A DNA stretch of 57,100 nt, taken from IMG/VR virus record IMGVR_UViG_3300017700_000562, positions 1 through 57,100 of that record; one strand, written 5' to 3'. Positions within the stretch are counted from its first letter, which is position 1; each line of letters begins with the position of its first letter. The notes beneath the pieces were generated by a model. It did no database searches. It was not told the DNA's origin and saw only the letters and a program-made list of their open reading frames with translations. Positions 11,917 through 40,317 of this stretch are shown piece after piece. The position numbers and the translations under genes were made by a program. Source of the stretch: a virus. Taxonomy: Duplodnaviria > Caudoviricetes.

Positions 11917-12786
11917 ATGTCTGATTCCCACTACCCCCCTTCCGTCGTCGCTTTCCTCGCAGAGCAGGACCAGATTCGTGCCCACCGGGACCGGCTGGCT
12001 GCGGACCTGAAATGGCAGAAAGACGAAACGACGCGTTTCGACAAGCTGCTTGAAATGGAGCGTTTCAAGACTGAGCGTCTCCATGTCGAAATCGATCGCC
12101 TGTCGGCCCGTTCGGAGACCTATGGCCGCGTCGTCCATCGCCTCGTCGCCAAGGTCGAGACCATGGTATTACTGATGTCGGCGCAGATCGTCGAGATCAA
12201 GGACGAGATCGAACGCTCGCAGTTCGCACCGCCTGAACGGGAGAAGACCGAAGAGCCGGAACCTGATTATCATGAACGCCATCAAGTCATGGAAATGGCC
12301 GAGGCTCTAGATAATCTGCCGCCCGGCAAACTGGGCAAGATCATGCAGACTATTTCAGAGCAGCGCCGGCCTCGTCTCAATGACGTGGTGTCGTCCGTAC
12401 AGGAGATCGGGGACGACGAGCTTATCAGCGCCGAGGAAATCGGCCGTCTCGGTGCGGGCTTTCCGACGCCGGAGGAACTGCCGGACACGTCGAGTGCCGA
12501 AGACTGGCGTAACCAAGATAAAGTGCGAGACGGAACATCGCAGACGGAAGTGGAATTTGTACCCAAGCCAGTGAAGCGAAGCGAACCTAACACCACGACC
12601 CGCTCTACTCCTCATGTGCCGTCGCGCCCTGAAATGACCGTTAAAATCCGTGACCTTGGGGCTGAGATGGGTATGGAACCACTATATCGAGCTTCGCAGG
12701 AGCAGTTGGGGAAGGTCGACGCGGCTGCTTCGAGGACATCTCGCACCCCCATGCCTCCGCCACCGGAGTTTACGCGACGCTCTTAG
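11917..12786 (+). CDS. Hypothetical coiled-coil protein, last gene of the + arm
   Basis: Long ORF whose stop overlaps the stop of the convergent - arm. Confidence 0.65.
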   Translation: MSDSHYPPSVVAFLAEQDQIRAHRDRLAADLKWQKDETTRFDKLLEMERFKTERLHVEIDRLSARSETYGRVVHRLVAKVETMVLLMSAQIVEIKDEIERSQFAPPEREKTEEPEPDYHERHQVMEMAEALDNLPPGKLGKIMQTISEQRRPRLNDVVSSVQEIGDDELISAEEIGRLGAGFPTPEELPDTSSAEDWRNQDKVRDGTSQTEVEFVPKPVKRSEPNTTTRSTPHVPSRPEMTVKIRDLGAEMGMEPLYRASQEQLGKVDAAASRTSRTPMPPPPEFTRRS

Positions 12787-13382
12787 ACGGGTCCGGACCC
12801 ACCACCGCCGCGCCGAGTGGTCGAGGCGGGTCCCTCAAAAATCAGGCGCTCGATGCGATTGAACCGATCATCGATCTTCCGGTCCAGGGTGTCGAACGAT
12901 TTTTGGTGGGATTCCACCTGGACCTGATGGTCTTTTTTCTGCAGGTAGTGACGCTCCGAATATAATGCCTCGTCGTTGACTTTTTGCTTGATCGCGGCGA
13001 TAGTCTCACCGAATTTTTCAAACGTGTCGTTGTGTTGGTCGACGGCTTCCTTGCGGGCCTTTTCGACGTCCATGTTCAGTTCGGCCAGATTTTGCGTCGT
13101 CTCGGATCGTAATTTGTCGATACTGTCGCCGGCCACCTTGGCGCTGGCCTTGATCTCGTTGGATAAGTCTTCCTTCATCTTGTTTTCGCGCGCGGCCTGA
13201 TTCCAGGCTCCGCCGCGTATCTGGACGATGACGTTCAGCAGGAACCCGCCGACAGCCATCGTGGCCAGCACCCATGGTAAATATTCACGCGGTTCCGACC
13301 CTGCAGCCGGGGCAGCCTGTGCCAGAGCCACACCGACGTACGTTACGGCGAGCACCACCACCGTCGCGGGTAAAGCCCTCAT
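12783..13382 (-). CDS. Lysis-module membrane protein with coiled coil
   Basis: Signal-like N-terminus (..VALAQA), a second hydrophobic helix and a charged coiled coil. Confidence 0.6.
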   Translation of the reverse strand: MRALPATVVVLAVTYVGVALAQAAPAAGSEPREYLPWVLATMAVGGFLLNVIVQIRGGAWNQAARENKMKEDLSNEIKASAKVAGDSIDKLRSETTQNLAELNMDVEKARKEAVDQHNDTFEKFGETIAAIKQKVNDEALYSERHYLQKKDHQVQVESHQKSFDTLDRKIDDRFNRIERLIFEGPASTTRRGGGGSGPV

Positions 13383-13594
13383 GCGCTGGGCGCTTTCGGG
13401 CAGTTCTGGCGATAGAACAGTTCGTTGGCGAGAAGCCGTTTCTTGACCCCTGACGGGGCGGTGATGACGCCGTCCCCCTTTTCCACGATAACCTTGTTGT
13501 ACACCACACAGAAGGAATCGATTTGTTCGGGGGTGCAGCTACTTGGGCTCAAGGTCACGGAGAGCAGCATCAACGTCAGTATCGGATAGCGCAT
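13379..13594 (-). CDS. Lipoprotein, o-spanin (Rz1-like) candidate
   Basis: MRYPILTLMLLSVTLSPSSC has a lipobox-like Cys and overlaps the 3-prime end of the upstream gene. Confidence 0.6.
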   Translation of the reverse strand: MRYPILTLMLLSVTLSPSSCTPEQIDSFCVVYNKVIVEKGDGVITAPSGVKKRLLANELFYRQNCPKAPSA

Positions 13595-13778
13595 TGACCT
13601 TCTCCATGATGGCCTTACCGGCAGCGGTCTTGGCAAGAATGTTCTGTGACGTCTTGGCGATTTCAGCATCCGCCCCAGCCTTCATCCACTTGTTCTGCTG
13701 CGCCATGCTGGTCAGTGCTTCTGCCAGCTTGAGCAACGAAACGATGATGGATAGAACGACCGAGGCGGTACTGATCAT
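13539..13778 (-). CDS. i-spanin (Rz-like) candidate
   Basis: N-terminal TM helix plus a short helical domain, overlapping the lipoprotein gene downstream of the endolysin. Confidence 0.55.
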   Translation of the reverse strand: MISTASVVLSIIVSLLKLAEALTSMAQQNKWMKAGADAEIAKTSQNILAKTAAGKAIMEKVNALSDTDVDAALRDLEPK

Positions 13779-13784
13779 GGCGCG

Positions 13785-14090
13785 TCAGCCCCCGGCTGCG
13801 CGGACGGCGGTGACGATGGCCGGCGTGGCCGCGATCACGTCCTTGTTTTCCGTGGCATTCGCAATTTCGGGGGTCGTGACCACCGTGGTGCCGGGCTGGC
13901 TGCCGACCGTCTCTGCGAGGGTGACGGTCTTGGTGAACATACCCATGACGACGGCAACGATGGCAAACACGACGGACGACACCAGCGTGTTCCAGGTAGC
14001 CTGGTCGAGCAGTGGGAACTTCGAAGCCAGCCACGCGACGGCAAGGCCGATAAGCGGAGTGAGGATGGTCTTAATTTGCGTCATGTTCAT
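13785..14090 (-). CDS. Holin candidate
   Basis: About 100 aa with two TM helices, located next to the endolysin. Confidence 0.6.
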   Translation of the reverse strand: MNMTQIKTILTPLIGLAVAWLASKFPLLDQATWNTLVSSVVFAIVAVVMGMFTKTVTLAETVGSQPGTTVVTTPEIANATENKDVIAATPAIVTAVRAAGG

Positions 14091-14150
14091 GGTGAAAGTT
14101 CCTTCTAAGGTTCAGGGGGAATATAACATAGACAGTAGTGGAACGCTAGT

Positions 14151-14759
14151 CTACACGTACGGAGTTCCAGCTTCCAGCATGGCGCGGACCTGCGCCGTGG
14201 ATTTGCCGGTGTGGAGTTCGTAGTGCGGAGTATCTTTAATTGATTTCCAATCGCCGCCCCAGTCGAGGCCGACCGGCTTGATCAGCTTCGCGGCGTCGAC
14301 GTACGCCTTGTTTTCGGTGGCGTTCTTGCCGGTGTAGTAGGTCCTACCCTTGAAAATGCCAATGTCAAACGCGATCCCAAAATTGTGGTTGGACGACCCC
14401 GCCTTGGCGTTGGTCACGATACTGCCGGGCGCGCTGCGGCCCTGGTTGTACAGCTTGGTCTGTTCGGCGTAGGTGCGGGTTCCGGACAGAATCTGAACAG
14501 TGAGACCGCCGCCGAGCGCCTTGACGGCAACCATGGCCTTGCGCGCCGCAATCTGTGCCTTGGGCAACAGCGACATGATATTACCCTCGGTACGCTCGTC
14601 GAACCGGCCGTACTGCTCGGCGTACTTGACGACCAGCTTGTTGAAGGCGTCTTCGGCCTTACGCGAAAGGTCACCGTACGACCCGTCGATTTTGCCCGTG
14701 TAGAGCCCAGCGCATTTCAGGAAGCGCTGGGCGAAATAGACGTCTGCCTTGAAGTTCAT
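14151..14759 (-). CDS. Endolysin, M15 L-Ala-D-Glu peptidase with N-terminal peptidoglycan-binding segment
   Basis: GTRTYAEQ..LYNQGR, SNHNFGIAFDI, WGGDW and DTPHYE. N-terminal YTGKIDG.YG. Confidence 0.9.
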   Translation of the reverse strand: MNFKADVYFAQRFLKCAGLYTGKIDGSYGDLSRKAEDAFNKLVVKYAEQYGRFDERTEGNIMSLLPKAQIAARKAMVAVKALGGGLTVQILSGTRTYAEQTKLYNQGRSAPGSIVTNAKAGSSNHNFGIAFDIGIFKGRTYYTGKNATENKAYVDAAKLIKPVGLDWGGDWKSIKDTPHYELHTGKSTAQVRAMLEAGTPYV

Positions 14760-14765
14760 GGCGTT

Positions 14766-17700
14766 TTATCCTTTGATTTGTCCAGAAATACCAGAGCGTC
14801 TACCTGTATTTGCCGAGCCTACCATAGTTACGGCGTTTGCGCTGCTCATGTTTCCTACCATAGTTACGAAATGGTAGCCATCAGACACACTGTAACGATT
14901 GACTGCCGCGATGGACCCCGTTGCTGTGGTGCCGTTAATGATGCCGCAAGTATCTGTGGGAACGGTAGTGCTGTCTGCTGCACTAAGGCAGGTCCAAGAC
15001 GCGTCCCCTACGGCCACATTGAAACCGTTCCCTACCATGTTGAACGTAACGGCCTGATCCGCCCATGCAAGGAACTCGCAAGTAGGGGCGTTGGTGTATT
15101 GTACAAACACAGTAGTTGCTTGTGGTCCAGTTACCGTGCCGTTCGCCAACATCGGACAGCCCATAGGAATGTCGCGCTTGTTTTGCCACGAGACCACGAA
15201 CCGCTGGTTGGTGTTATATACATACACCACGGACGAACTAAATGTACGAATTTGACCAATCAGTGATCTGCTGGTATTGCCGCTTTTCACCGCCTGACCA
15301 ACATTTCCCGCTCCTGTGTCAATCACGTACCCGGTAGTGGAGAAATCGCAAGTAAGCGTTCCGCCGTTGTTGAACAGGTAGACATAGTAACTTGTGGAAA
15401 CTGCCAAAGTCTGAGCGGCCACTCCATTCAGGTATACCGACGTAGGGTTACCGCACCCGGCTACACCGGCAGCAGGGATTTGATACACCACCCCTGCGAT
15501 ACGTATGGTGTCGCAACTGGCAGAACTGACGGGAGAGAAGTCTAGTAGAGTTCCTGTTACATAAGTTAAGCGTCCGCATTCCTGGGATATAACGGGAGGA
15601 GTCCCCCCAGGAGGGGTCTTCCACGTACCATCCCCGGCCCAATAGGTAGTGCTGGATGCCCCCGAACCCCCGTTTAGATTCGTAACGGGCAGATTTCCAA
15701 CCACCCCGTTGGCAAGATTGACCTGGTCCCACTGAGGATTGTTACTGGCTCCTGTGTTGGCAAGGTAACGACTTGCACTAGTGCTCTTCGCGAGTACCGT
15801 GGGAGTATTGGCGGCTGAATAGTATATCAGGTCCCCCTGCGCCGTGGTGAGGTTTGTAAGCAGCCCCCCAGACGACATATAGGTCAGACCCGAGGCAGCG
15901 TAGGCGGGTAGTAGTATGCCCCCGGCCGCGTTAGATCGTATTCTAATATTACCCAGTCCATCGGCCAGGTAGATGTTGCCGTCCACCATGACGGAATGGT
16001 CTACCTTGCCTAGCGCCGTAACGTTGGAGAGAGCGCTGCCCGCAGTTGTTGCCCCCGTATTATTGACGAACAACGTGTTACCGCTGCCCGAGACGACTCC
16101 CTTGCCAGAATAGAAACCCGCAAATACGTTGCTGCTAGCAGTAGTCACGTTAGCGCCTGAGAGCAAACCAATAGCAATATTGCCCGACCCTGATGTAATG
16201 TCGGACAGCGTGCTCCAACCCAAAGTGGTATTATTAAACGCAGTGGAAATAGAAGGAGCAAAGGCAGCACAAGATTGTGCACCAATGCAAGTATTTTGAT
16301 ACCCGGTGGTAAGGCCGAGACCCGTGTTGTATCCCACTGCCACGTTTTCAGCCCCAGTATGAGGGGTGCCGGTGCCCCCCACCGGGTCGTAATTGCCGCC
16401 GATGGCGTTAGCCCCTAGCGCCGTGTTGTGCGTACCCGTGGTATTGGAAAGCAACGCGGTTGCGCCAACGGCAGTGTTCTCCTGAGCCAGATTGTTGTCT
16501 GCCCATTGTAACGCGAACAGACCGATTCCTACGTTGTAATAACAAGTCGTGCACCCGTAGCCGGACTGGTAGCCAACAAACGTGTTGTTGGTGGAAACTG
16601 GAAAGGTACCCCCAGTAATTTTGTAACCAGCCGCGTTACCAACTAGCACGTTGCCTTTGGAAGTGGTCATGTCATGACCAGCAGCGAAGCCATACGCGGT
16701 GTTTTCGATGCCCGTAGTCAAAGACGTCAAAGAAGCATTGACCGCAGTATTGGCACTCCCAGTCAACGTTCCATTACCAGCATTACAAAACACATTTGAC
16801 GTCCCCGGCGTAGTACAACCGCTACCGCCGCCACCACCAGAAGCAGCGATAGTAAGAGTGCCTGCCCCCGGTGTAATGGTAACATTCGCACCCGCCACCA
16901 GGGTAAGGTTACCCCTTAGTGTATTTAGAGACGTGACCGTGGCGTTAGCGCTGGCCATGTCTAGCAGGGACACCGACATTAAGGCCCCGGTGGAGGCCTT
17001 CTTGACCAGGAATTTATCATTGGCCGAATTTACCGGAGTGCCGCTAGGCAGACCGGCGATATCAAAAGCGGAACTGGACGCGACTACCGTCAAAGGATTG
17101 CCATACAGTGTGCCCGCACCGGCGGCAGCGCCGGGTGTAGAAACCGAAATGTCATTTCCGGTACATACCAGCCCCACGCCGCAGGTCAGCACGCCTTGCA
17201 TACCTCCGATGGACGCCACCCCGAAATAGGAATTAGGATTGGTATCGGGGGTGGTTTTGATGACGTAGTTCAATTGGGTGGTAGGCTGGATTATGGGAGC
17301 GGCTGCAGAACTACCATTTGTATTAATAGTAATACCGGTAACAGAATTTTGTGTGGAAACCCCCGCAAGGCTGGTGATAGTTCCTGTTGGTACGTTCACA
17401 CCGGCCCCGGCCACCACCGTGCCGATGGTAGTACCAGCATAAAGCGTACCGGCAGTCGTAGCATGTAAATGACTGGGGTCGGTAATACCATGATTGTGGG
17501 CCGCAAGTTCAGCCACGGTTTGTACATGGGACTGGGATCCGCACGACGCGCCCAAGCCCGGTTCGGCGCAGAATACCGCAGTAAGCCGGTTGGCCGCGAT
17601 TATGCCCATGTTGTCCCGACCAGCGACGACTCGCCCTCGCAGATCAGGCATGTTAAACGTGGTCGAGCCGTTACCATTGCCGAAATTGAAAAACCGGGTG

Positions 17701-18395
17701 GACACCCCATTGCTCGTGATGATGGCGTTAGAACTCGCCACGACCGTGCTGCCCGACTTGGACACGACGGTGGAACCAGCGTTTAGGCACGAACTTTCTA
17801 TTGCGGCCCCCACGATTAACTGGGACGTGTCCAGCAGCCCGGTAAGATTGGGGCTGCCTGAAATGCAGTTGGCATTCTGAACTGACGTCAAGACAGAATA
17901 CAATTCAGGGTAAGTGGCCCGTACCAGTTGCTGGCCATAGGCAAATATGTAGGCGTTTGGGGCCGTCATGCCTGCCCAAATTTGAACCGACCCCACGGAT
18001 TGTCCGTCCCCTACGGTGGCGGACCCCCCACCCCCACCGCCTGATCCGGTGGACGCAGTTACCGCGTCCCATATTGTGTTCCCGTCAGCGTCCTTGACTA
18101 CCTGACGATATGACCCCGAACCAAAAGTCTGGCCCGTAGGTTGTGGGTAACCTGCAGCGTCTAGGACTACGGGATTGGTGGATAACACCGTACTGGCAGA
18201 ATTTACCCACGTGTTTTTACGTACGTTGCCCCCCGGTATGTAATAGTCCACGGTACCGGCCGCGACGGGATTGCCAAGCGCATCCAGGTATTGCTGTTTG
18301 GCATTGGGCAACAGGGACGTCTGGCCAAATGCCATCATAGGCACGAGGATACCGAGCAGCGTGCCCATTACAATTTGCTTCAAGGTCTTTTTCAT
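14766..18395 (-). CDS. Tail fibre / receptor-binding protein with N-terminal signal peptide
   Basis: Particle-attachment domain (YLDALGNP...TNPVVLDAAG), tail collar (RATYPEL, TFNMPDLRGR), HxH motifs and NTAVG-type beta-roll repeats. GAGGA RBS before MKKTLK. Confidence 0.88.
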   Translation of the reverse strand: MKKTLKQIVMGTLLGILVPMMAFGQTSLLPNAKQQYLDALGNPVAAGTVDYYIPGGNVRKNTWVNSASTVLSTNPVVLDAAGYPQPTGQTFGSGSYRQVVKDADGNTIWDAVTASTGSGGGGGGSATVGDGQSVGSVQIWAGMTAPNAYIFAYGQQLVRATYPELYSVLTSVQNANCISGSPNLTGLLDTSQLIVGAAIESSCLNAGSTVVSKSGSTVVASSNAIITSNGVSTRFFNFGNGNGSTTFNMPDLRGRVVAGRDNMGIIAANRLTAVFCAEPGLGASCGSQSHVQTVAELAAHNHGITDPSHLHATTAGTLYAGTTIGTVVAGAGVNVPTGTITSLAGVSTQNSVTGITINTNGSSAAAPIIQPTTQLNYVIKTTPDTNPNSYFGVASIGGMQGVLTCGVGLVCTGNDISVSTPGAAAGAGTLYGNPLTVVASSSAFDIAGLPSGTPVNSANDKFLVKKASTGALMSVSLLDMASANATVTSLNTLRGNLTLVAGANVTITPGAGTLTIAASGGGGGSGCTTPGTSNVFCNAGNGTLTGSANTAVNASLTSLTTGIENTAYGFAAGHDMTTSKGNVLVGNAAGYKITGGTFPVSTNNTFVGYQSGYGCTTCYYNVGIGLFALQWADNNLAQENTAVGATALLSNTTGTHNTALGANAIGGNYDPVGGTGTPHTGAENVAVGYNTGLGLTTGYQNTCIGAQSCAAFAPSISTAFNNTTLGWSTLSDITSGSGNIAIGLLSGANVTTASSNVFAGFYSGKGVVSGSGNTLFVNNTGATTAGSALSNVTALGKVDHSVMVDGNIYLADGLGNIRIRSNAAGGILLPAYAASGLTYMSSGGLLTNLTTAQGDLIYYSAANTPTVLAKSTSASRYLANTGASNNPQWDQVNLANGVVGNLPVTNLNGGSGASSTTYWAGDGTWKTPPGGTPPVISQECGRLTYVTGTLLDFSPVSSASCDTIRIAGVVYQIPAAGVAGCGNPTSVYLNGVAAQTLAVSTSYYVYLFNNGGTLTCDFSTTGYVIDTGAGNVGQAVKSGNTSRSLIGQIRTFSSSVVYVYNTNQRFVVSWQNKRDIPMGCPMLANGTVTGPQATTVFVQYTNAPTCEFLAWADQAVTFNMVGNGFNVAVGDASWTCLSAADSTTVPTDTCGIINGTTATGSIAAVNRYSVSDGYHFVTMVGNMSSANAVTMVGSANTGRRSGISGQIKG

Positions 18396-18555: not shown

Positions 18556-20688
18556 TTATTCAGACTGAGAATTCTTGCGACGAACAACCGACGCTCCTGG
18601 TCCTGATACCGCACCGGTCAAAAGGTTTCCTCCGGCCCGCGTCCGAGCGAAGGTCTTTGCCTGACGCGCCTCTTCGTTTGACAGGCCCCGAATCAGGTCG
18701 ATCATCTGAGGACCATTAGGCATCGTCAACAAGTGACCCAACTGGTTGTTGGCTACGTTGTTACGTTCGCCGCGCCGGGCATTGATCATGCCTGAAATAG
18801 TGAACTGATCGCGGATCGATGGCGGCAGATACGTGCCCGGTTTTCCGATATCGAACCCCCACTCAGGAGCGGGATTCGGCATCAATAGATTCTTGCGTTC
18901 GGCGCGGCCGACGTTGGAAGCGCCAGTGGCGTTGTTGCCCATGACGTCGAGAGCCTTGACCCCCAACAAGTGCTCCTGTTCAAGAGCCTTGATCATTTCG
19001 TCGGCCTGCTTATTGTTGCCGATCAGCAGGCGCAATTTCTCCTGATTATTGGGGGCCAACAGCTTGTTGCGCATCTGGGTGTCGCCAGTCAGCGCCGCCC
19101 CCATAGCATCTGAAATGGCCGCCCGTGCACCTATGACGCGGGCCTGGATTTCAGGCACTGACAGTCCGCGTAATTCGTGCTTGAGTTCGTCTACGGTCAA
19201 CCCGGATCGTCCCCCTAGAAAGGTGTCATATCCAGCCGCGTGGTTATCCTTCAACGAGGCATAATCCGCAAAGGTCTTGCGGGCCGTGTTCCACACCTTT
19301 CCAGCGTCGGTGGTTTCGATCTCGTGGATCATATCGTTCTTGAGACCGATCAACTTGCGTGCCAGCGTCTTGTCGCCGCTGGAGTATGCCTTTTCGATGG
19401 ACGAATCTAGGCCCTGCTTGACGTAGTCCCATGTCTGGGCAGTCGGAAAGTCCTTCTGCGGCCCCCCGGTGAAGAACTTGATGTTCACCGGTTCACCTGA
19501 AATGGCAGCCAGCTTCTCGGCGCGCTTGAACGCCCCGGCATTCTTGAGGCGCGGGATCAGGTCCTTTAGGCGTTCGGTGGGTGGAACCCTCATGCTGGTC
19601 CACTGGTTATACAACGGAGACGCCGCAGCCTTCTGGGCCTCAGTCGTAAGATATTCTAGTTCGACCATGTCGCGGCGAGGTGTACCCATGCCAGCGTCGG
19701 CTGCGGCCTCGATTCGGGGGCGCTGGTTGTCCATCCGCGTCTGATAGGCCTCACGCACGACGGCTTTCGGGCCGGGGGTTACGGCTGCCGCCCCCGTAAG
19801 GTCGGTCATACCTTGGTTGAGATCGCCGAGAAAACCGTGCGGCCCGATCCGATCCCGCGCAGCCGCGATGGTGGCCGGAGTCTCCCCCTCCACAGCCTGA
19901 ACCAACCGGTTTACGTTGATGGGGTCGATACCCTTCAACGGCCCCTGACGGGGCAGAAAATAATTGAGGGCAGCCGACGTGCCCTTATGAGCCAGATCGC
20001 CGGCCACAGGCCCGGCCATACCCACTCCACCTCCGAGCAACGCGCCGGTACCGATATTATCCCCGCGCAGCGCGGCATCAGCACCCCCAATGGTGGCACC
20101 CCCGGCTCCACCGCCAAGGGTACGAAGGCCCAAGGAAGGCCCACGGAGGCCCATCATGATCGCGCCGGGGCCTGTCATGGCCAGCGGGATCGCAGACGCA
20201 ACGCCACCCGCCACGTTGGCCACGGTGGACCCTATCGGATTTTCGGCGGCAAATTCCTTGGTGGCCCCGGTCAGTTTGTTGCGGGCCGAAGTGAAACGGT
20301 CCATCCACGTCGCGCCGTAGGGGTTGGGGTCCCCCTGCCCGAAACCTTTGGCAGTAGCGTCAATTGCCGACGCCGCCAGATCGGTGGCCGGGGCAACCAG
20401 CGGCACTCCCTCCACCACCTGGTTGGCATAGCCCGCCGCCTTGCGAGCGGGTTCAGGGGCGGTGTCGATCAGGGACGGTTTGCGGATGGTCACGCGGGGT
20501 CGACCGTTCTCACCAATCGGCACTCCGCCCGGCGAAACCTTGGTCGGTTCGTCTTTGATTCCCAGCATGTCCAGGGCTTTTTGGAATTCATGCACCGTCG
20601 CCGGCTTGGTGGCAGCCTTGCGCGGCGTCGGGGCGTCGTCGTCCTCGCCGTCGTCAATACCCAGCAGCTTGGCGGTCGAACTGGCCAT
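18556..20688 (-). CDS. Large DNA ejection / internal virion protein
   Basis: Gly/Ala-rich amphipathic segment and a helical C-terminus. Third of three coupled genes at the P22 gp7/gp20/gp16 position. Confidence 0.7.
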   Translation of the reverse strand: MASSTAKLLGIDDGEDDDAPTPRKAATKPATVHEFQKALDMLGIKDEPTKVSPGGVPIGENGRPRVTIRKPSLIDTAPEPARKAAGYANQVVEGVPLVAPATDLAASAIDATAKGFGQGDPNPYGATWMDRFTSARNKLTGATKEFAAENPIGSTVANVAGGVASAIPLAMTGPGAIMMGLRGPSLGLRTLGGGAGGATIGGADAALRGDNIGTGALLGGGVGMAGPVAGDLAHKGTSAALNYFLPRQGPLKGIDPINVNRLVQAVEGETPATIAAARDRIGPHGFLGDLNQGMTDLTGAAAVTPGPKAVVREAYQTRMDNQRPRIEAAADAGMGTPRRDMVELEYLTTEAQKAAASPLYNQWTSMRVPPTERLKDLIPRLKNAGAFKRAEKLAAISGEPVNIKFFTGGPQKDFPTAQTWDYVKQGLDSSIEKAYSSGDKTLARKLIGLKNDMIHEIETTDAGKVWNTARKTFADYASLKDNHAAGYDTFLGGRSGLTVDELKHELRGLSVPEIQARVIGARAAISDAMGAALTGDTQMRNKLLAPNNQEKLRLLIGNNKQADEMIKALEQEHLLGVKALDVMGNNATGASNVGRAERKNLLMPNPAPEWGFDIGKPGTYLPPSIRDQFTISGMINARRGERNNVANNQLGHLLTMPNGPQMIDLIRGLSNEEARQAKTFARTRAGGNLLTGAVSGPGASVVRRKNSQSE

Positions 20689-22289
20689 TAGTAGGTAACC
20701 CACTTGTTGTCGTGCGCCTTCTGGACCTTACGGAGCAATTCCTTGCGCTCGTCGGCGTTCTCGATCTTGTCGAAGTATTCCTGCCGTTCCTTGGGTTTCA
20801 GATACTTGAACTGGAACACACGTGGGTCATACTCCGAATTGAAATTATCCTCGAACTGCAGGTAGGTTTGTGGACCCTTACCCTGTTCGCGCCACTTGCG
20901 CCATTCCTTATTCTTCAAGGTGATGGCGTCCTCGTTACCCTTAAGCAGGCTGAGGATGCCCTTGATGCCTTGCTGCGACATCAGTTCGTTGGGCGAAGTG
21001 TGCATCGCGCTGTCCAGCTTGGCGTCGGTGCCGGTGCCGCCGAGAGCCTTGAACTGGGACTGCACGAGAGTATGTACCTGCTTGTTGAACTCTTCCTGCG
21101 AGGCCACGGACCGCTCGTCGAATACCGCGCCTTCCTTTTTCCAACTGGCAGGAATAGGGGCGTTCGCAATAATGGCGCTCTTGAATATGCGCTTGTAGTC
21201 CGCGCCGGGGCCGGGCGTGAAGTTCTTGAGTTCCTTCTCCAGATTGCCGATGATGGCCCTGGCGTTTGGCGATTCGGCTGCCGCAGAACTGAGAGCCGAG
21301 GCCCGTGCCGTGGAAGTCGCGGTTTCTGCCTGTGTCGCGGTATCGAAGCCGGGCGGATTGGCGACTGCCGGGCCTTTTGCCGTGCCGTAGGCCGCGTCCA
21401 TCCGCTGCTGAGGCGTGGCCGGGCTGGGATCGTCCGGAATGGGCATACGGTCCCGGCGCTGCGGACCGGGGGGAGGCAGATCGGCGCGCTCGACCGGGCC
21501 GGCCTCGGACCCCGTAATGATGCCCTTGAAATTGTTGCTGTAGTTGGGGTCCTTGGGAGAGCCCTGCTCGCCATATAGACGCGGTTGACCCTCCGGACCG
21601 GCAACAGGCGTCGTCGGCGGAATGCGCTTTTGCATCGGGGCCGGCAGTTTGGGTTCGGCCTTTGTTCCGAGCGGCACGAAGTTGATGTTCTGGCCATCAT
21701 CAATCGTACCGTATTGAGGTGAGTGCTGGCCCAGGATTTCAGCCGACGACGCGGCCTGTGTGGTAAGTTCGAGGGCCTTCTTGGCGATTTCCTTGCCGGA
21801 CAGCGGCTTGCCATCCACCCCGTGAAACTGCTTGGTGATGTTCAGGATCAGAGGCAGGTCAATGCCCAGTTCCTTGGCACCAGGCAACGACATAACGGTG
21901 CGCGCCACTTTGTGGACTTCGGCCATGGTGGCCTTGTCGCCCTTTTCGGCAATGCCGCTGAACATGTGGCTGGTGAGTGCAAGTCGCTTCTGCAGCGTGT
22001 CTAGACCGGTGGCGTCTGCGGCAAATCCTGCGCTTTTCAACTTTTCGAGCGCGTCCAGCGTCGGGATGGCCTTGGACGCTCCGGCCGGGGATTGCCCTAG
22101 GAAGGTAGCAAGCTTGTTGCGGTCAATCTGACCGTCCGGACCCATCGCCTGCTGAACGCCCTTGCCGACTTCGAGTTCCCCAATAGCCGACTGCATCTTG
22201 GCCACATCGGTAAGCATCGACAAAGGATTGTTAGCCTGTGGCTGAGGCTTGGGGTAGGACGAGAAGTCAAACGAACCAATGTCGGCCAT
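20688..22289 (-). CDS. DNA ejection / internal virion protein
   Basis: Start MADIGSFD at 22289. Assigned by synteny and composition. Confidence 0.7.
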   Translation of the reverse strand: MADIGSFDFSSYPKPQPQANNPLSMLTDVAKMQSAIGELEVGKGVQQAMGPDGQIDRNKLATFLGQSPAGASKAIPTLDALEKLKSAGFAADATGLDTLQKRLALTSHMFSGIAEKGDKATMAEVHKVARTVMSLPGAKELGIDLPLILNITKQFHGVDGKPLSGKEIAKKALELTTQAASSAEILGQHSPQYGTIDDGQNINFVPLGTKAEPKLPAPMQKRIPPTTPVAGPEGQPRLYGEQGSPKDPNYSNNFKGIITGSEAGPVERADLPPPGPQRRDRMPIPDDPSPATPQQRMDAAYGTAKGPAVANPPGFDTATQAETATSTARASALSSAAAESPNARAIIGNLEKELKNFTPGPGADYKRIFKSAIIANAPIPASWKKEGAVFDERSVASQEEFNKQVHTLVQSQFKALGGTGTDAKLDSAMHTSPNELMSQQGIKGILSLLKGNEDAITLKNKEWRKWREQGKGPQTYLQFEDNFNSEYDPRVFQFKYLKPKERQEYFDKIENADERKELLRKVQKAHDNKWVTY

Positions 22290-22291
22290 TT

Positions 22292-23125
22292 TTAATACCC
22301 CGCTAGGGGGGTGGGGCCGTTCGGACCGCCGAGAGACGACGCTCCATACCATGACCCGTCGCCCGTCGCACCGCTGCCGCCATACACGCCATTGCTGCCC
22401 ATCTGGTTAGCAAGATAAGCGCTACCAAGCGAATTGCCCAGTCCGCCGATCGCCGACCCGATGGCATTGGACGACGCGGCGCTGGCATTTCCTGCTCCAA
22501 TCAAGGCCTGAGAATTGGCATTGGCCACGTTCGACCCGACGCCCGCCAGCGCGTTGCCCGACGACGCCCCGGTGTTGATCAGGTTCTGACCCGCGCCGGC
22601 CTGCCCGCTGAACAGGTTCTGTAGAGAATTAACGACACTCTGCCATGTCTGCGACGCCAGACCGCTGGAGAACGACGCCGCCCCCTTAGCCACGGCCCCG
22701 CCCGATCCGCCGAGACCACGGGCAGCCAGCGCATTGTTGGCGGAACGCAGCCCCTGGCTGTTGGCGAACTGATACCCCGGCGTCTGTTCAAGCGTGGCCG
22801 ACTGATCGGCCCCCGGCATCAACAATTTCATGAGAGCGTTCAGGGGGCTGGAAGTGTTGTTAGGGTCGAGAAGCTGTTGCTGCGACCCGATCTGTTGCTG
22901 CCCCGCATTGATAAACGGAGACAATAAGTTCTTGTTCTGTTCGTACATCTGCTGCTGGTTAGCGATGGATTTGTCAGCAGCTTCGCGCTGGGCGTCAGCG
23001 GCATTCGAGGACCCAAACACGGACGCCCCGGCCGAAAGTGCCCCCGCGCCCAAGATCGCTGCCGCGACTGAACAGTACAGCCGGGCCTCCGGATCGAATT
23101 CTTGGAATGCTCGGCTGGTGATCAT
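22292..23125 (-). CDS. DNA transfer (pilot) protein, P22 gp7-like
   Basis: Gly/Ala/Ser/Gln-rich, with LEQTPGYQF...AARG and AADAQREAA motifs. Confidence 0.8.
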   Translation of the reverse strand: MITSRAFQEFDPEARLYCSVAAAILGAGALSAGASVFGSSNAADAQREAADKSIANQQQMYEQNKNLLSPFINAGQQQIGSQQQLLDPNNTSSPLNALMKLLMPGADQSATLEQTPGYQFANSQGLRSANNALAARGLGGSGGAVAKGAASFSSGLASQTWQSVVNSLQNLFSGQAGAGQNLINTGASSGNALAGVGSNVANANSQALIGAGNASAASSNAIGSAIGGLGNSLGSAYLANQMGSNGVYGGSGATGDGSWYGASSLGGPNGPTPLAGY

Positions 23126-23583
23126 CAGATTAAGGCCCTGATCATATATGTATCGGCGGGTTCAAACCCGAACATCGGAAGCAATCTGTCGAGACCCAGC
23201 GGATTTCCGGTCTTGTACCCGGAATACCACACTTTCACGCCCCGTCGTCGTAATTCCTGTTCGGTGTGCCGAAACAACGGGAGGACCAGACCCCGGTTCC
23301 GTTCTTCGGGAACAACGTAACATATGTCCATTGTTCCGGTCAATGTGGAACGGTAGTGAAACCCCGGCGCGACCTGTGCGATGTAATATGCCGCGATCTT
23401 GCCGTTGCGCCGGGCCGTGACCAGGAACAAAATTCCCTGCGCCTCGCGGCGCAGGTATTCGTCGTACTGGGGATCGAGCGGCATCATCCACTGTAGCAGG
23501 CCAAGTTCACGATGATGCGACACGAAGATTTCACGCAGTTCCGGTAATGCGTGTTGGTAAGATTCGACCTGGAGTGTAATCAT
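23125..23583 (-). CDS. GNAT-family acetyltransferase
   Basis: ICYVVPEERNRG acetyl-CoA motif A and a C-terminal FGFEP. Confidence 0.8.
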   Translation of the reverse strand: MITLQVESYQHALPELREIFVSHHRELGLLQWMMPLDPQYDEYLRREAQGILFLVTARRNGKIAAYYIAQVAPGFHYRSTLTGTMDICYVVPEERNRGLVLPLFRHTEQELRRRGVKVWYSGYKTGNPLGLDRLLPMFGFEPADTYMIRALI

Positions 23584-24446: not shown

Positions 24447-24696
24447 TGGGCTCGGACCCCACGTCCCACTTGAGAGTTACGCTGGGCTTGCCGGACCTGT
24501 TGCCGGCCCTGCGAGCCACTTCCTGGTCCAGCTTGTCGCGGGTCTCGAACTCCAGCGCCGGTCGATACTTGGCGGCATCAGTGAGTTGAGCAGACAGGGT
24601 GGAGTCGTCCAGCATTTCCTGCATGAGTGGAGGAAATGCAGACAGATAGTATTTGAAACTTTCCTTGTCTTGCCACGCGTACAGGGTTCTTGGCAT
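24436..24696 (-). CDS. Hypothetical protein
   Basis: Coupled between tail genes. Confidence 0.5.
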   Translation of the reverse strand: MPRTLYAWQDKESFKYYLSAFPPLMQEMLDDSTLSAQLTDAAKYRPALEFETRDKLDQEVARRAGNRSGKPSVTLKWDVGSEPNGA

Positions 24697-26162
24697 CAGG
24701 TTTCCGCTTCCTCGGGCTCGACGTACACGCCGTTGAGCGCAGTTTTCATGTTTGCAGTCCAGAACAATTCATAGACGCGCTGGCGAGCCATGCCGAGACG
24801 GTTGTATTCGATCAGGGTGTCATACTGCCCGGTAGCTCCCAGGGGCTTTTGCAACGGGTCCGAATAAGTGTGACCCCCGTCGTCTGAATAGACCATGTTC
24901 AGCATCGGCATTTCGGCGTTCGGGTCTTCGATGGTACCGCATTCCATATAAGCGCGTAGTGCCCAGTGCGTCACTCGGTTCAGTTCCTTGACCAGTGTTG
25001 GGAACCCTCGGATATACTGTACAGCCCGCCCGTTGTCTTCATATACTTCTGGGTCGATCAAGTATAGTTCACCGGTTTCCCAGTCCACCCCAACCGTTTC
25101 ACCATACGCTTGTGCATAAAATAACACGCGGTCCCGGTGCAAGTTGCCGTCATCATCCTGCCATGCCAACTGGTGCCACTGCTTGGTGGCCAGATCGTAT
25201 GCCCAGGTCTTGTCGGCACTCGGAAATGTGAACACTACGAAGATATGACCTTCGATCTGGTAGGTGGTACCTACGGCATCTTCCAGCGTAGGGTATTTCT
25301 GGATTTCGTTCTCGATGGCGTGGGTTGAAATACGCTGAGCCGTGTATCCTTCCGACTTTACAATGATTCCCTTGCCTTGCAAATTGCGAGAAATCCAGAA
25401 CAGTGAAGTATCCGCGAACACTTTGCTGTACTTGGCGACACATCCATACGACACGAAAGTAGACGGAATGGCCTCGAACGGAAAATCAGCCGCGCCCGAC
25501 AGGAACCATGGCTCCGTGGTCTGCGTGCCGATCAACCAGACTTCACGCTGACGAACTCCAATGGTCACGATGCTGTCCGGGTAGGTAGCCTTGCCGGCGA
25601 TGTCCAGGGCATCAAATGTTACGGCGTCGGACTGCGATATAATCCAATTCTGGGTGTTTGGGATGGTGTTGAACAGGAAAAACGTCTGCAGATAGTCGAC
25701 CACGTCGGCCCCGGTGAACAGCCCCGTGCCGTCAACTATAGGATTGAACACCAGCGTGGTCATGTTCATCACGTAGCCGGTGGTGGTGCCATCCACCAAC
25801 ACCAGGGCATTGCCCGCAAATTGTCCGTTATCTGCCATTGATACCGGATTCAGACCCCCTACGATATTCCCAATGGCGTTGTACTGCCAAGTGGGATCAA
25901 TGTAGTACAAAGTGTCATTGATCAATTCAAACAGTCGACCGTTAGACGCCGTGTACAGACCCCGCGCCACTCCGTTTGGACCTGTGCCGGACAGTACGGG
26001 AGACCCCAACAAAGTCTTACCGGGCCGTGGGTAGTGCGTGACCGGGGCTGGGGGCTTGGTCTCCTGTGGATTGGCCTCCGGATACAGGTTTACGCAGCGC
26101 TGAGCGTTGGCAATGACGCTCTTTGCCTGGTACGCGCCTGACGTAAGCGGAAGTGGCTCCAC
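24696..26162 (-). CDS. Packaged-DNA stabilisation / tail hub protein, P22 gp10-like
   Basis: AQRCVNLYPE, SMADNG, TWAYDLATKQWH, SDDGGHTYS and RLGMARQRVYEL. Confidence 0.85.
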   Translation of the reverse strand: MEPLPLTSGAYQAKSVIANAQRCVNLYPEANPQETKPPAPVTHYPRPGKTLLGSPVLSGTGPNGVARGLYTASNGRLFELINDTLYYIDPTWQYNAIGNIVGGLNPVSMADNGQFAGNALVLVDGTTTGYVMNMTTLVFNPIVDGTGLFTGADVVDYLQTFFLFNTIPNTQNWIISQSDAVTFDALDIAGKATYPDSIVTIGVRQREVWLIGTQTTEPWFLSGAADFPFEAIPSTFVSYGCVAKYSKVFADTSLFWISRNLQGKGIIVKSEGYTAQRISTHAIENEIQKYPTLEDAVGTTYQIEGHIFVVFTFPSADKTWAYDLATKQWHQLAWQDDDGNLHRDRVLFYAQAYGETVGVDWETGELYLIDPEVYEDNGRAVQYIRGFPTLVKELNRVTHWALRAYMECGTIEDPNAEMPMLNMVYSDDGGHTYSDPLQKPLGATGQYDTLIEYNRLGMARQRVYELFWTANMKTALNGVYVEPEEAET

Positions 26163-26608: not shown

Positions 26609-27343
26609 CTAGTTGCCGAACTGGTCCGAAAGGATGTTGTACCCATTACCCCTTGGCATAACAGCCGAGGGCATAGTGAGTTCCGGAATTTGCAAATTGG
26701 CCTGGACGATGATGTCTCGGGCTTCCTGCGCCAGCGCGATCAGGGACGGATCGGGCTTCATACCCTTGCCGTACCCCTGCCGCAATCGCAGCGCCAGTTG
26801 GAATTTCATCCACGGCACGTACATTTCGGGGAACACGCCGTCGACCACCGTGTTAAGGGTCACGACCGGCATGACGTCCTTGAACAGTAGATGGATTTCG
26901 TACAAATTGGCGTTCGGTACCGGATATGGGTACAAGATTCCCATCGGGTTCTTGGTATCTAGGAACACCGCCTGTGGAAACGAAATCAATTGCTTGGTGG
27001 CGATCTGGCTGTAGGTCTCGCGCGCGTCGATGACCTTCAAGGGCTGATCGACGTCGAGGCCGTTGTTCTGCAGCTGGCGCACGTAGGCTGCCTGAATACG
27101 GTTGGGGCGCGGGGTCACGTTATAGTTCCCGCCCGGTCCCACCGTGTAGGTGTATGCCCCGGTAGACACGAACCCCACGTCTAGTTCGGCCCAAGTCATG
27201 AACTTTTCAGTTCTGGCCTGGGCCAACATGTCATTGAGATCGGCCAGCGCATCGTTCTGGTCCGACGCGCTGGCCGTCCCCCCTGAACCAAGTATCCCCG
27301 ACTTTTTCAGAGCCTGAGTTACTATGGACAGACCTGTGGTCAC
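26609..27343 (-). CDS. Head-to-tail adaptor, P22 gp4-like
   Basis: IVTQALKKSGILG...DALADLNDMLAQ and FQLALRL...YG. Confidence 0.8.
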   Translation of the reverse strand: MTTGLSIVTQALKKSGILGSGGTASASDQNDALADLNDMLAQARTEKFMTWAELDVGFVSTGAYTYTVGPGGNYNVTPRPNRIQAAYVRQLQNNGLDVDQPLKVIDARETYSQIATKQLISFPQAVFLDTKNPMGILYPYPVPNANLYEIHLLFKDVMPVVTLNTVVDGVFPEMYVPWMKFQLALRLRQGYGKGMKPDPSLIALAQEARDIIVQANLQIPELTMPSAVMPRGNGYNILSDQFGN

Positions 27344-31509: not shown

Positions 31510-31908
31510 CTAGGCGCTGAAAGTCGGCTTGTCGCCCATGCGACGCTGCAGTAACGACACGGCCTTGGGGGACGTAGACTTCTGGTGCTCTTCCAGTAGC
31601 GCGGCCATGATGCCGTCCTTGACGTTCTGGTGGATGGTCGGGTCAGTCAACATCTGAACCATGCGCTTGCGTGCGATGTCGACGAAGTATAACCAGCCTG
31701 GGCGATCGATATTGATCGTACCGTCCTTTTTGACCTGCATACCTCGAATATAGTGGCGCAAAGTCGGGTATGTGGCCCTGAAAGCAGCGGAACGCTGTTG
31801 ATCATGCAAAGCAGAGCCATGCTCCTTACTCGCCTCAGTATAAAATTCAGAGGCGAGGCGCTTTGCAACACTCCGGATGCTTCGTTCCGTCATTGTTCTA
31901 TCTTCCAT
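31510..31908 (-). CDS. Hypothetical protein
   Basis: ORF in the late operon. Confidence 0.6.
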   Translation of the reverse strand: MEDRTMTERSIRSVAKRLASEFYTEASKEHGSALHDQQRSAAFRATYPTLRHYIRGMQVKKDGTINIDRPGWLYFVDIARKRMVQMLTDPTIHQNVKDGIMAALLEEHQKSTSPKAVSLLQRRMGDKPTFSA

Positions 31909-39714: not shown

Positions 39715-40317
39715 TTACTGGGTACGATACCACTTGGTCGTGGTGGCATTGTAGAACCACTCATAGCAGGTTCCTGCGCCGGTCGCAGGCGGAATCGCCA
39801 TGGCGGTGGGGCCGTTCATGATCGTGGTGCCGGACCCGGCCGTCAGGGTCAGCGCCGTGATGATCTGAGTCGAACACAGGCCGAGCAGCTGATTGTCGAG
39901 CAGGGTCGACGCTGCGGGGAACACGAAGGTCAGCGCAGCAAGCGTGCCGGCCGGTTCGATCTGGACGCGCCGGGTGCCGGGCAACACAGTGATCGATGTC
40001 CCGGTCAGGGGGACGCTATACTGGTAGGGGCCGGCACCGAGGGTCGAAATGTCGATGGCGACGGTCTGGGGTGCCTGACCAGATGGCAAATGAGTATCCG
40101 CCACGATGGTTTCGTTGCCGGTGAGAGCAGACGGGCCGGCCGGGACTGGAGAAGTGCAGGTCGGCGTGGTACCGGGCACGCCCGATGTTGCGTAACCGGC
40201 GCAACCAGCCGGGCCGCCGACGAGGGGAAAGCCGGGAAAGTAGCCGTCAGCAATCGCAGCACCGACGCCCAGGGCGAGGGCAGCGGCTGCTACCAGAGCG
40301 TAGAGGGAACGCTTCAT
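39715..40317 (-). CDS. Sec-signal exported beta-rich protein (4 Cys), decoration/fibre-like C-terminus
   Basis: MKRSLYALVAAAALALGVGAAIA-D, and IEPAGTLAALTFVFP...STQIITALTL...WYR. AGGAG RBS. Confidence 0.8.
   Translation of the reverse strand: MKRSLYALVAAAALALGVGAAIADGYFPGFPLVGGPAGCAGYATSGVPGTTPTCTSPVPAGPSALTGNETIVADTHLPSGQAPQTVAIDISTLGAGPYQYSVPLTGTSITVLPGTRRVQIEPAGTLAALTFVFPAASTLLDNQLLGLCSTQIITALTLTAGSGTTIMNGPTAMAIPPATGAGTCYEWFYNATTTKWYRTQ

Follow-up and report, generated by a model that had tools for sequence, protein, structure and literature searches.

A predicted Sec signal peptide and ten cysteine pairs suggest periplasmic maturation of the tail fibre of a P22-like podovirus

Introduction

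Assembly of tailed phages is, in the textbook account, wholly cytoplasmic. In P22, addition of the tailspike is the last assembly step, and it works in vitro on tail-less heads. Outside the tailed phages, pIII of phage Ff is a receptor-binding protein of the virion that carries a Sec signal peptide and acquires its disulfides in the periplasm, ahead of its incorporation into the particle.

Several further systems touch on protein export or on disulfides in phage-related proteins. Lys44 of Oenococcus phage fOg44 (Sec-type) and SAR endolysins such as P1 Lyz are late proteins that rely on the host Sec system, and for P1 Lyz periplasmic disulfide chemistry plays a part (PMC6116005). WceF of Pantoea stewartii is described, in the part of the source available, as a tailspike-like trimer that an N-terminal signal, later removed, directs to the periplasm via Tat (PMC7949094). 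Disulfides stabilise the particles of Agrobacterium phage Milano and Bacteroides phage PD491P1 and a siphovirus tail tube; the cysteines lie in sheath, baseplate, tube or capsid proteins, and oxidation is ascribed to host enzymes or air, an export signal being undescribed in the text available (PMC13576161). The words 'signal peptide', 'periplasm' and 'cytoplasm' are all absent from the Milano paper. A precedent for an exported, periplasm-matured fibre was not found in the literature on tailed phages. Here we describe a gene of a P22-like phage with a short tail. We read it as the only gene for a receptor-binding tail fibre in this phage, and its product may take a route to the virion that differs from that of all characterised tailed-phage fibres.

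Results

The window, that is the whole stretch of 57,100 nucleotides analysed, constitutes a podovirus genome, complete at 57.1 kb, with a P22-type portal (P22_portal match, 461.9 bits), adaptor, hub and ejection genes. Its sole fibre gene has the following features:

14766..18395, minus strand: whole fibre gene, 1209 codons plus stop, 1209 aa
18400..18404, minus strand: Shine-Dalgarno-like GAGGA, then a 4-nt spacer and the ATG at 18395
18324..18395, minus strand: predicted Sec/SPase-I-type signal peptide, residues 1-24 (n-, h- and c-region reading, homolog leaders)
18036..18323, minus strand: predicted P22 gp9-type tailspike head-binding domain, residues 25-120 (PDB profile and fold search)
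17241..18008, minus strand: tail-collar / T4 gp12-like domain, residues about 130-385 (PF07484, PHROG 8763)
15996..16763, minus strand: repeat-rich shaft, residues about 545-800 (tblastn; PHROGs 6002 and 4636)
14769..15581, minus strand: C-terminal receptor-binding-type domain with four cysteine pairs, residues 939-1209 (homology)

The preliminary description had read a GAGGA ribosome-binding site, a Sec-type leader with basic n-region, hydrophobic core and A-F-G|Q cleavage site, a particle-attachment domain directly behind it and 20 cysteines, all in local pairs; each of these elements was recovered. The protein begins with the 24 residues MKKTLKQIVMGTLLGILVPMMAFG, followed by Q25. The n-region contains K2, K3 and K6 (KK..K) and no acidic residue, the h-region reads IVMGTLLGILVPMMA with residues 8-22 uncharged and an 11-residue Kyte-Doolittle mean of up to 2.65, and A-F-G occupies positions -3 to -1 before Q25. 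The leader has neither cysteine nor arginine, and is thus of neither lipobox nor twin-arginine type. Homologs had been considered that might lack such a leader, but a basic n-region and hydrophobic core are present in 119/119 homologs among the matches listed in a word-indexed search (with net positive charge beside the core in 104/119 by a crude parse), and after an exhaustive search 187/207 proteins overall bear a leader. The letters of these leaders are highly divergent, yet the organisation into n-, h- and c-regions is kept. Small residues at -3/-1 occur in 183 of the 187 leader-bearing proteins and are missing from four; the commonest types are AxA (71), AxG (67) and AxS (13), and Q follows at +1 in 159. 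The predicted cut aligns with the natural start of the leaderless relatives PAE2, P4282, P26218 and MW202557, which begin with M/V plus one or two residues and then LLP/LLQ. These sequence features suggest cleavage of the fibre by signal peptidase.

With about 190 clusters encountered, this is a large family. Its lineage branches deeply and consists of 54-61-kb podoviruses, with a portal identity to the window of only about 40%, and the searches turned up no cultured member of the leader-fibre lineage. Among cultured phages, PAE2 has the portal nearest to that of the window (45% identical), and its fibre is leaderless.

The start codon bears on an alternative in which the fibre stays in the cytoplasm, the leader being either a gene-calling artefact or a hydrophobic extension with another role, for example a membrane-active segment during infection, and the cysteines oxidising spontaneously after lysis, as has been suggested for other virions rich in disulfides. 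Met20 and Met21 lie near the domain in the window protein, and translation from this internal MMAFG had been raised in the preliminary description. The reading frame is closed upstream by an in-frame TAA at 18413-18411, which rules out a longer N-terminus; Met1 of the leader is the first possible start and is preceded by the GAGGA site (18404-18400), whereas no Shine-Dalgarno-like motif stands before Met20/Met21. The retention of n-, h- and c-regions across very divergent sequences also argues against this alternative. An internal start was rejected as a general option, since a methionine among the last nine leader residues is found in only 22/187 leader-bearing homologs and is lacking in 165/187. 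As Met20/Met21 adjoin the cut site, however, a minor cytoplasmic form may be made in this one phage.

Behind the leader, residues 25-120 form the predicted particle-attachment domain, of P22 gp9 type. Profile comparison with the PDB retrieved 7eeq_A, the 'Tailspike head-binding domain' of cyanophage Pam1 (E=1.5e-13), as well as 9vyg and 9vyh (E about 3e-12 to 1e-11). In the fold search, 8eb7 (in-situ P22 gp4-gp10-gp9N) matched with Z 10.3 and an rmsd of 2.8 A over 91 residues, followed by 8tvr (Z 10.2), 2vnl (10.2), 7sg7 (9.8) and 7eeq (9.5), scores that exceed those of unrelated rows (Z 7 or lower). Model pLDDT is 81-90 across the domain. Near-invariant alignment columns cover roughly the first 400 residues, the head-binding domain among them.

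A second alternative concerns the fate of the leader, which might remain uncleaved as a SAR-like signal-anchor holding the fibre on the periplasmic face of the inner membrane, with release upon holin depolarisation. Among phages, SAR endolysins offer a well-established precedent (PMC6116005), and the cores of many homologs of alphaproteobacterial type are rich in Gly, Ala and Thr, even with Gln, as in IAWGALFGTLIATQALG, a composition reminiscent of SAR domains. The signal-peptidase-type -3/-1 motif, on the other hand, sits directly ahead of the domain in 183/187 proteins, as given above. The uncharged cores are short, with a median of 13 residues and a range of 9-26 across the 187 homologs, and in low-GC homologs they lack the length for stable anchoring. 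Furthermore, the head-binding fold begins about nine residues past the predicted cut, compared with residue 9-14 in the P22, Sf6 and Pam1 chains. We therefore regard an uncleaved anchor as distinctly improbable.

The remainder of the protein resembles a fibre. The Collar domain PF07484 matches residues 135-170 with 41.7 bits (cut-off 24; E=1.1e-10) and the collar region matches PHROG 8763 'tail protein' (E=7e-18), with weak fold matches (1ocy, Z 6.3; 8kec, Z 6.1). Two cysteine pairs lie in this region, C177/C203, which is conserved, and C276/C285, which is specific to the window. The shaft carries C615/C618 and C703/C709, and its tblastn matches are tail fibres or tail structural proteins of Pelagibacter HTVC111P, Roseobacter CRP-1, CRP-831 and others. 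The C-terminal domain is homologous to 80 viral loci, and homologs at the tail-fibre position include those of Rhizobium phages RHph_TM26 (E=6e-20) and RR1-A (E=6e-18). The structure model is confident only at mature residues about 11-92 and 105-230, and C177/C203 are the only pair within this part.

The fibre has exactly 20 cysteines in ten local pairs: 177/203, 276/285, 405/411, 527/537, 615/618, 703/709, 940/961, 981/1016, 1080/1106 and 1136/1150. Spacing is 3-35 residues within pairs (sum 156) and 20-231 between them; when 20 positions were drawn at random 100,000 times, a sum this small came up with a frequency of 7e-5. The pairs behave as units, with C405 and C411 together present or together absent in 180/185 rows and C177 and C203 both kept in 176/185 leader-bearing rows, and other leader lineages (L032 type, L059 type) have a cysteine pair within the head-binding domain itself. 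An even number of cysteines in the mature protein is found in 210/214 leader-bearing proteins vs 21/45 leaderless ones, counts in which L054 was reassigned by eye; Fisher's test before this reassignment, with related sequences counted, gave p=2.8e-16. A phylogenetically independent test of parity has only 3 supported pairs and thus no power (p about 1). Some leaderless relatives are cysteine-rich (up to 13), and in the leaderless fibres of the Rhizobium myophages only C1106 of the eight cysteine positions of the C-terminal domain is kept in both phages. In the sequences compared, even cysteine counts follow the leader and not the domain families, which is a further point against the cytoplasmic fibre introduced above. 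That alternative draws on the disulfide-bonded tailed-phage virions reported with an export route unmentioned in the text available, and these indicate that cysteine pairs alone need no periplasmic route. Weighing both sides, we hold a purely cytoplasmic fibre to be very improbable.

Other genes of the window form the context of the fibre:

24696..26162, minus strand: tail hub, P22 gp10-like (PHROG 'head closure Hc3'; PHROG 578, E=2.8e-90)
26609..27343, minus strand: head-tail adaptor, P22 gp4-like (Ad3; PHROGs 12985 and 637)
18556..23125, minus strand: three ejection-protein-like genes, 22292-23125, 20688-22352 and 18556-20703 (PHROG 598 'DNA ejection', PHROG 5880)
13379..14759, minus strand: lysis cassette of four ORFs, directly downstream of the fibre
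14151-14759, minus strand: soluble M15-type endolysin, leaderless (PHROG 2649, E=3e-35)
13785-14090, minus strand: two-TMD holin-like ORF (sequence features only)
13539-13778, minus strand: i-spanin-like ORF (sequence features only)
13379-13669, minus strand: Rz-like lipoprotein ORF (lysis cassette reading)
39715..40317, minus strand: second exported protein (predicted), 200 aa, 4 Cys, signal peptide A-I-A before D

The hub, which has no signal peptide, and the adaptor are the expected docking partners of the fibre. The ejection-protein-like genes lie directly upstream of it, and the gene order Hc3 - ejection - fibre is common to leader-bearing and leaderless relatives. The other virion proteins of the window are cysteine-poor, with 0 Cys in proteins of 715, 554 and 1168 aa and 1 Cys in the 1546 aa of the ejection-type proteins combined. 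In the lysis cassette, where a spanin match was obtained (PHROG 1275, E=7e-4), the endolysin without leader lets us expect a hole-forming holin, and the Rz-like lipoprotein indicates a diderm host, which is probably one of the Hyphomicrobiales. A phage-encoded DsbA or thioredoxin was not found, while control genomes gave positives.

This context bears on a third alternative, in which the exported protein serves outside the virion, whether exclusively or in addition to a structural role. It could act at the envelope of the infected cell in receptor masking or destruction, in superinfection exclusion or in shielding progeny from adsorption to debris, or else be a free, soluble depolymerase or adhesin. 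A signal peptide and paired cysteines would suit any protein of the periplasm or the cell surface, a leaderless member of the N-domain family in Ralstonia phage P4282 is deposited as 'bacteriolytic protein', and bacteria themselves export tailspike-like trimers, as the available part of the WceF report (Tat pathway) indicates (PMC7949094). However, the head-binding domain occurs in a single copy in this complete genome and likewise in 5/5 complete relatives, so that without the product of 14766..18395 the particle would be fibreless. The gene also occupies the tailspike slot. In leader-bearing homologs, few parts of the protein are as well conserved as the head-binding domain, and this conservation would be difficult to account for if the domain had ceased to dock on a hub. 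Hence, an envelope role in place of a virion role seems unlikely to us, while a cell-surface or receptor-masking function may be an additional role of the fibre.

The 200-aa protein encoded at 39715-40317 is present in 9/10 leader-fibre phage records (5/5 + 4/5) and in none of the five leaderless-fibre phage records searched (0/5). Its cysteines are paired, all its homologs have a signal peptide and an even mature cysteine count, and it gave no match in Pfam and PHROG. It is modular, with a conserved N-terminal module of its own.

Discussion

The sequence comparisons strongly support export of the fibre and formation of disulfides. The export and oxidation proposed in the preliminary description gain from the parity of the cysteines, the co-occurring pairs, the cysteine-poor remainder of the virion and the match of the predicted cut with the start of leaderless relatives. 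Taken together, it is probable, though by no means certain, that the fibre is exported via Sec, oxidised in the periplasm and attached at lysis to particles made in the cytoplasm. The fibre would be synthesised with a cleavable Sec signal peptide and pass unfolded into the periplasm of the diderm host, where signal peptidase I would cut after A-F-G. The mature N-terminus would then be Q-T-S-L-L-P-N-A-K-Q-Q, the equivalent of the natural N-terminus of the leaderless relatives. The protein would trimerise and gain about ten intrachain disulfides via the periplasmic oxidation system of the host, presumably with a dependence on host Dsb. Meanwhile, heads with portal, adaptor, hub and ejection proteins would be built and filled in the cytoplasm as usual. 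The holin would then open the inner membrane, lysis would be completed by endolysin and spanins, and with the compartments mixed the gp9-type domain could dock on the gp4/gp10-like hub as the last assembly step, joining fibre and particle at or after lysis. Such late docking is plausible given the in vitro addition of the P22 tailspike. A broader reading, to which we give even chances, is that this lineage splits virion assembly into cytoplasmic heads, filled with DNA and carrying hub and ejection proteins, on the one hand and at least two Sec-exported, disulfide-bonded appendages of periplasmic make on the other, the main fibre and the protein of about 200 aa, joined only when the holin breaches the membrane.

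If true, a step of periplasmic maturation would be known for the first time from the virion of a tailed phage, and oxidative folding would be open to the receptor-binding parts of these phages. A fibre of this kind would add a new branch to the assembly pathway and tie infectivity to the secretion and disulfide machinery of the host, so that the phages would depend on further host factors and hosts might have further ways to resist them. The very stable, cysteine-rich receptor-binding parts of some phages would be accounted for as well. For virome annotation it would follow that a signal peptide on a 'tail fibre' gene should be treated neither as a mis-call nor as proof of a non-structural gene. 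In engineering, such fibres would probably need periplasmic expression or oxidising strains for folding.

The closest systems by structure are the tailspikes of P22 (gp9), Sf6 (gp14), Pam1 and Pan3, whose attachment domain has the same fold and belongs to the same family, and P22-type systems share the hub genes and the gene slot. P22-type tailspikes are made in the cytoplasm and begin directly with this domain, whereas the window fibre has a 24-residue leader and ten cysteine pairs; its body is fibre-like, while that of the tailspikes is a beta-helix enzyme. The fibres of Pseudomonas PAE2, Rhodoferax P26218 (gp26) and Ralstonia P4282 are 40-44% identical to the window protein in the N-domain, but have no leader, start the domain at residue 2-3, are shorter (459-688 aa) and contain 12, 3 and 13 cysteines, respectively, of mixed parity. 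Exported endolysins differ in being lysis enzymes rather than virion parts, and the endolysin of the window itself is leaderless. The N-terminal part of WceF is a weak fold match to the window fibre (6tgf, Z 6.0); WceF uses Tat, according to the available part of its description, while the window leader lacks a twin arginine. Unlike in virions of the Milano type, cysteines in the window are confined to the proteins with signal peptides, the other virion proteins being cysteine-poor. Ff pIII resembles the window fibre in its route and not in ancestry: in a Pfam search at E<=0.1 the window fibre contained the Collar domain only, and pIII domains were not found. Ff particles leave the cell by extrusion through its envelope, with no lysis, whereas the DNA-filled icosahedral head of the window phage is cytoplasmic and would have to meet the exported part.

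Results

A tailspike-type protein behind a predicted leader

On the minus strand, the ORF from 18395 to 14766 encodes a fibre of 1209 residues. The GAGGA ribosome-binding site named in the preliminary description lies at 18404-18400, four bases from the ATG, and a longer N-terminus is impossible because an in-frame TAA is found 18 bases upstream of this ATG. Reading of residues 1-24 bears out the proposed leader, a Sec-type signal peptide with three lysines in a basic n-region, an uncharged hydrophobic core and A-F-G preceding Q25. That a particle-attachment domain follows directly was confirmed by profile and fold matches to tailspike head-binding domains. A profile built from residues 25-125 and their relatives matched the Pam1 cyanophage 'Tailspike head-binding domain' (7eeq, E=1.5e-13) and also the Pan3 tailspike (9vyg/9vyh). 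The AlphaFold model of the domain is confident (pLDDT 81-90), and its superposition gave a Z of 10.3 against the in-situ P22 gp4-gp10-gp9N complex (8eb7; rmsd 2.8 A over 91 residues), 9.8 against Sf6 gp14N and 9.5 against Pam1. The fold sets in about nine residues past the predicted cut, compared with residue 9 to 14 in the matched solved chains. The remainder of the fibre is built as follows.

Behind the head-binding domain, glycine linker
Tail-collar / T4 gp12-like domain (Pfam, 41.7 bits; fold matches weak)
Repeat-rich shaft, resembling marine-phage tail fibres
C-terminal domain (residues 939-1209, receptor-binding type), common to fibre-slot genes of the Rhizobium myophages RHph_TM26 and RR1-A

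An AlphaFold2 model of the whole mature fibre from 32 aligned rows has a mean pLDDT of 45.7 (906 of its 1185 residues score under 50) and is readable as a fold only up to residue ~255; it yields no disulfide geometry. In public sources, homologs are named only 'hypothetical', 'endosialidase-like' or 'microcystin-dependent protein', and no cultured phage (50,697 records) aligned over more than one fifth of the fibre at any single place.

The window, a complete virus record, comprises 57,100 bases and has a direct terminal repeat of 123 bases and a G+C content of 57.4%. A tRNA scan found no tRNA in it, and between 13300 and 19000 the number of promoter and terminator sites is not above that of shuffled sequence. 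Its genes are arranged as follows.

Minus strand: large terminase, then P22-type portal (461.9 bits), then 1168-aa protein
31890-35396, minus strand: 1168-aa ORF in the portal/scaffold interval; no Cys, no Pfam family, a weak PHROG 'endolysin' stretch at residues 713-787
Minus strand, after the 1168-aa ORF: scaffold, major head protein, gp4-like adaptor, gp10-like hub
Minus strand, after the hub: three ejection-protein-like genes, then the fibre gene, then the lysis cassette
Minus strand, lysis cassette: leaderless M15 endolysin, holin-like ORF with two transmembrane domains, i-spanin-like ORF, Rz-like lipoprotein
Other strand, replication genes: DNA polymerase A, Prim-Pol/DUF5906, UvrD-type and SNF2-type helicases

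This is a P22-like morphogenetic module within a virulent-looking genome, and the closest cultured portal, that of Pseudomonas phage PAE2, is just 45% identical. The product of the 1168-aa ORF may be a large protein of the virion interior. The ORF at 85-1011 (plus strand) matched the DNA polymerase A profile over the C-terminal two thirds only (positions 97-381), and its N-terminal part was not found; this gene may be split or continue across the record ends. An acetyltransferase-like ORF (23125-23583, minus strand; PHROG 1249, E=4e-11) lies among the tail and ejection genes. Directly behind the spanin genes, the ORF at 12783-13382 (minus strand, 199 aa) encodes a protein with one hydrophobic segment, or two, at its N-terminus and a long tail that is charged and coiled-coil-like; PHROG gave no match and Pfam only one below threshold, and the product may be a lysis-associated membrane protein. 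Leader-bearing copies of the fibre are also contained in MAG contigs labelled Pseudolabrys and Hyphomicrobiales, where binned phage contigs can mislead; together with the C-terminal domain shared with Rhizobium phages, these labels are hints, and only hints, of a Hyphomicrobiales-type host.

The head-binding domain occurs once in the window. It likewise occurs exactly once, and behind a leader, in every one of five complete relatives (57-61 kb) whose portals are 39-43% identical to that of the window. The position of the fibre gene after the hub and ejection genes is the same in leader-bearing and leaderless phages. By the identity of its head-binding domain, in sequence and model, its single copy and its conserved slot, the fibre is the phage's own tailspike-slot protein and no accessory gene. 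The alternative that it acts in the envelope, outside the virion, is unlikely as a sole role: it is the only fibre gene of the phage, and the head-binding domain is among its best-conserved parts.

Conservation of the leader

A word-indexed search with residues 1-140 gave 174 matches, and among the 120 listed the leader was present in all 119 besides the query. An exhaustive search with the domain alone returned 4725 clusters at E<=1e-3; when the best 150 of these were pooled with the first set, 187 of the resulting 207 proteins were leader-bearing, three had leaders shortened by gene calling and 17 started at the domain. The possibility, raised beforehand, that homologs would lack the leader is thus not borne out. 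Leader sequences differ almost wholly between groups, with the basic start kept. Among the 187, the core has a median of 13 uncharged residues, small residues occupy -3/-1 in 183 (AxA 71, AxG 67, AxS 13) and Gln follows the cut in 159. Translation from the internal MMAFG had been another doubt. A Met within the last nine leader residues is found in only 22/187, so that an internal start skipping the leader is not generally available.

The leaderless fibres of the cultured or assembled phages PAE2, P4282, P26218 and MW202557 start with M or V and one or two residues, followed by LLP or LLQ. This natural start is the exact point at which predicted cleavage leaves the window fibre. On a weak FastTree tree (274 N-domains, ~100 columns) the leader state changes at least seven times, and separate leader types (loci L032, L047, L059 and L086) hint at more than one origin, again with the tree being weak. 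Judged by this conservation, the leader is real and old. It might instead stay uncleaved and tether the fibre in the manner of a SAR protein, a reading that we consider improbable given the cleavage motifs and the short hydrophobic cores.

Cysteine pairing follows the leader

The 20 Cys of the fibre had been described as lying in local pairs, and this holds: when they are paired in sequence order, partners lie 3 to 35 residues apart in the ten pairs, with gaps of 20 to 231 between pairs, and random placement reaches so small a summed pair distance with a frequency of 7e-5. Other virion proteins of the window contain far fewer, at most 0, 0, 1, 0, 3, 3, 1 and 4 (three ejection proteins, 1168-aa protein, portal, hub, scaffold and coat). 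After removal of duplicates, the mature Cys count is even in 210 of 215 leader-bearing fibres (median 12), compared with 21 of 44 that lack a leader (median 2.5; no Cys in seven), a difference with a Fisher p of 2.8e-16 among rows that are related. Of the five "leader" rows with an odd count, L054 proved leaderless on inspection, which changes the counts to 210/214 and 21/45. An independent-pairs test had no power, with only three supported pairs (p about 1).

Mature counts range from 2 to 26, and near relatives differ by twos. C177 and C203 are present together in 176 of 185 leader-bearing rows, while C405 and C411 are both present in 129 of these, both absent in 51 and mismatched in five. 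In two other leader lineages, the head-binding domain itself contains a Cys pair. Of the Cys positions in the homologous C-terminal domain, that of C1106 alone is shared by both leaderless Rhizobium myophage fibres, the partners being ordinary residues. This domain was found in 80 viral loci, leaderless except for one (L150), with 0-7 Cys and an even number in 49/80, and some leaderless relatives of the N-domain have up to 13; Cys as such is therefore not exclusive to exported fibres. What is exclusive to the leader-bearing, putatively exported fibres in these alignments is near-perfect pairing. The exception among the 80 loci, an IMG/VR contig of 28.7 kb, encodes a 751-aa protein in which a different signal-peptide-bearing N-terminus is joined to a C-terminal domain of the Rhizobium-phage type; with seven Cys in its mature part, an odd number, it departs from the pairing rule.

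A second predicted exported protein

Directly upstream of the terminase gene lies a further ORF with a signal peptide.

39715-40317, minus strand: 200-aa ORF with a signal peptide and four Cys

Homologs (35-58% identity) occur in nine of ten phage records with leader-bearing fibres and in none of five with leaderless ones (three of these five at least 90% complete), a co-occurrence confounded by shared ancestry. All homologs read have a signal peptide and an even mature Cys count, one pair being lost or replaced as a pair, and in one relative a 445-aa protein is headed by the same signal peptide and a conserved module of ~60 residues. The predicted layout is that of a modular appendage, and the 200-aa protein may be a second exported appendage. 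It belongs to no Pfam or PHROG family, and besides viral unknowns a language-model look-up returned no more than weak leads to fibre-like proteins of small size.

Two small adjacent ORFs (40314-40712 and 40709-40987, both minus strand) have near-identical twin-arginine (Tat-like) leaders, MIARRSFITG..., encoded by an 89-nt direct repeat that is 79% identical (repeat family D2). They were rejected as conserved partners, since the leader part alone was matched, in two of five relatives. At loci L230, L231 and L233 of three relatives (virus records G005, G003 and G002), the ORF next downstream of the 200-aa homolog has a signal-peptide-like N-terminus, in one case with a lipobox-like L-A-A-C, which suggests a small cluster of putative exported proteins in these phages.

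Discussion

On present sequence evidence the fibre is a true tail fibre and belongs to a known family; what is new about it is a conserved secretion leader coupled to obligatory Cys pairing. We propose that the fibre leaves the cytoplasm via Sec, loses its leader to signal peptidase I, and folds and becomes oxidised in the periplasm. Oxidation would probably depend on the host's system, because family searches of the window, with positive controls, found no DsbA or thioredoxin-like protein. Heads would be finished in the cytoplasm and meet the fibre once the holin opens the inner membrane, an opening required anyway because the endolysin is leaderless, or after spanins complete lysis. Tailspikes of P22 attach last and can also attach in vitro, which makes late docking plausible. 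A cytoplasmic fibre whose cysteines are oxidised by air appears very improbable, as the leader is conserved and preceded by a Shine-Dalgarno sequence. Sec export, periplasmic oxidation and joining of heads at or after lysis, all three of which we infer, make up the most economical reading and probably the correct one.

Several known systems share single elements with this route. Sec-exported and SAR endolysins are described in a review (PMC6116005), and WceF is a bacterial tailspike-like trimer that is exported via Tat (PMC7949094). Disulfide-rich virions are listed in a 2026 paper, according to which phages are not known to possess a dedicated oxidising machinery (PMC13576161). A word search of the Milano phage paper found export-related words absent. 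In the full-text literature covered, which leaves out most subscription journals, we found no report of a secretion signal on the fibre or tailspike of a tailed phage. The proposed route implies a compartmentalised assembly step, of a kind that this literature is not known to describe for tailed phages. The nearest analogue is pIII of filamentous phages, which is unrelated in sequence to the window fibre and resembles it in route only.
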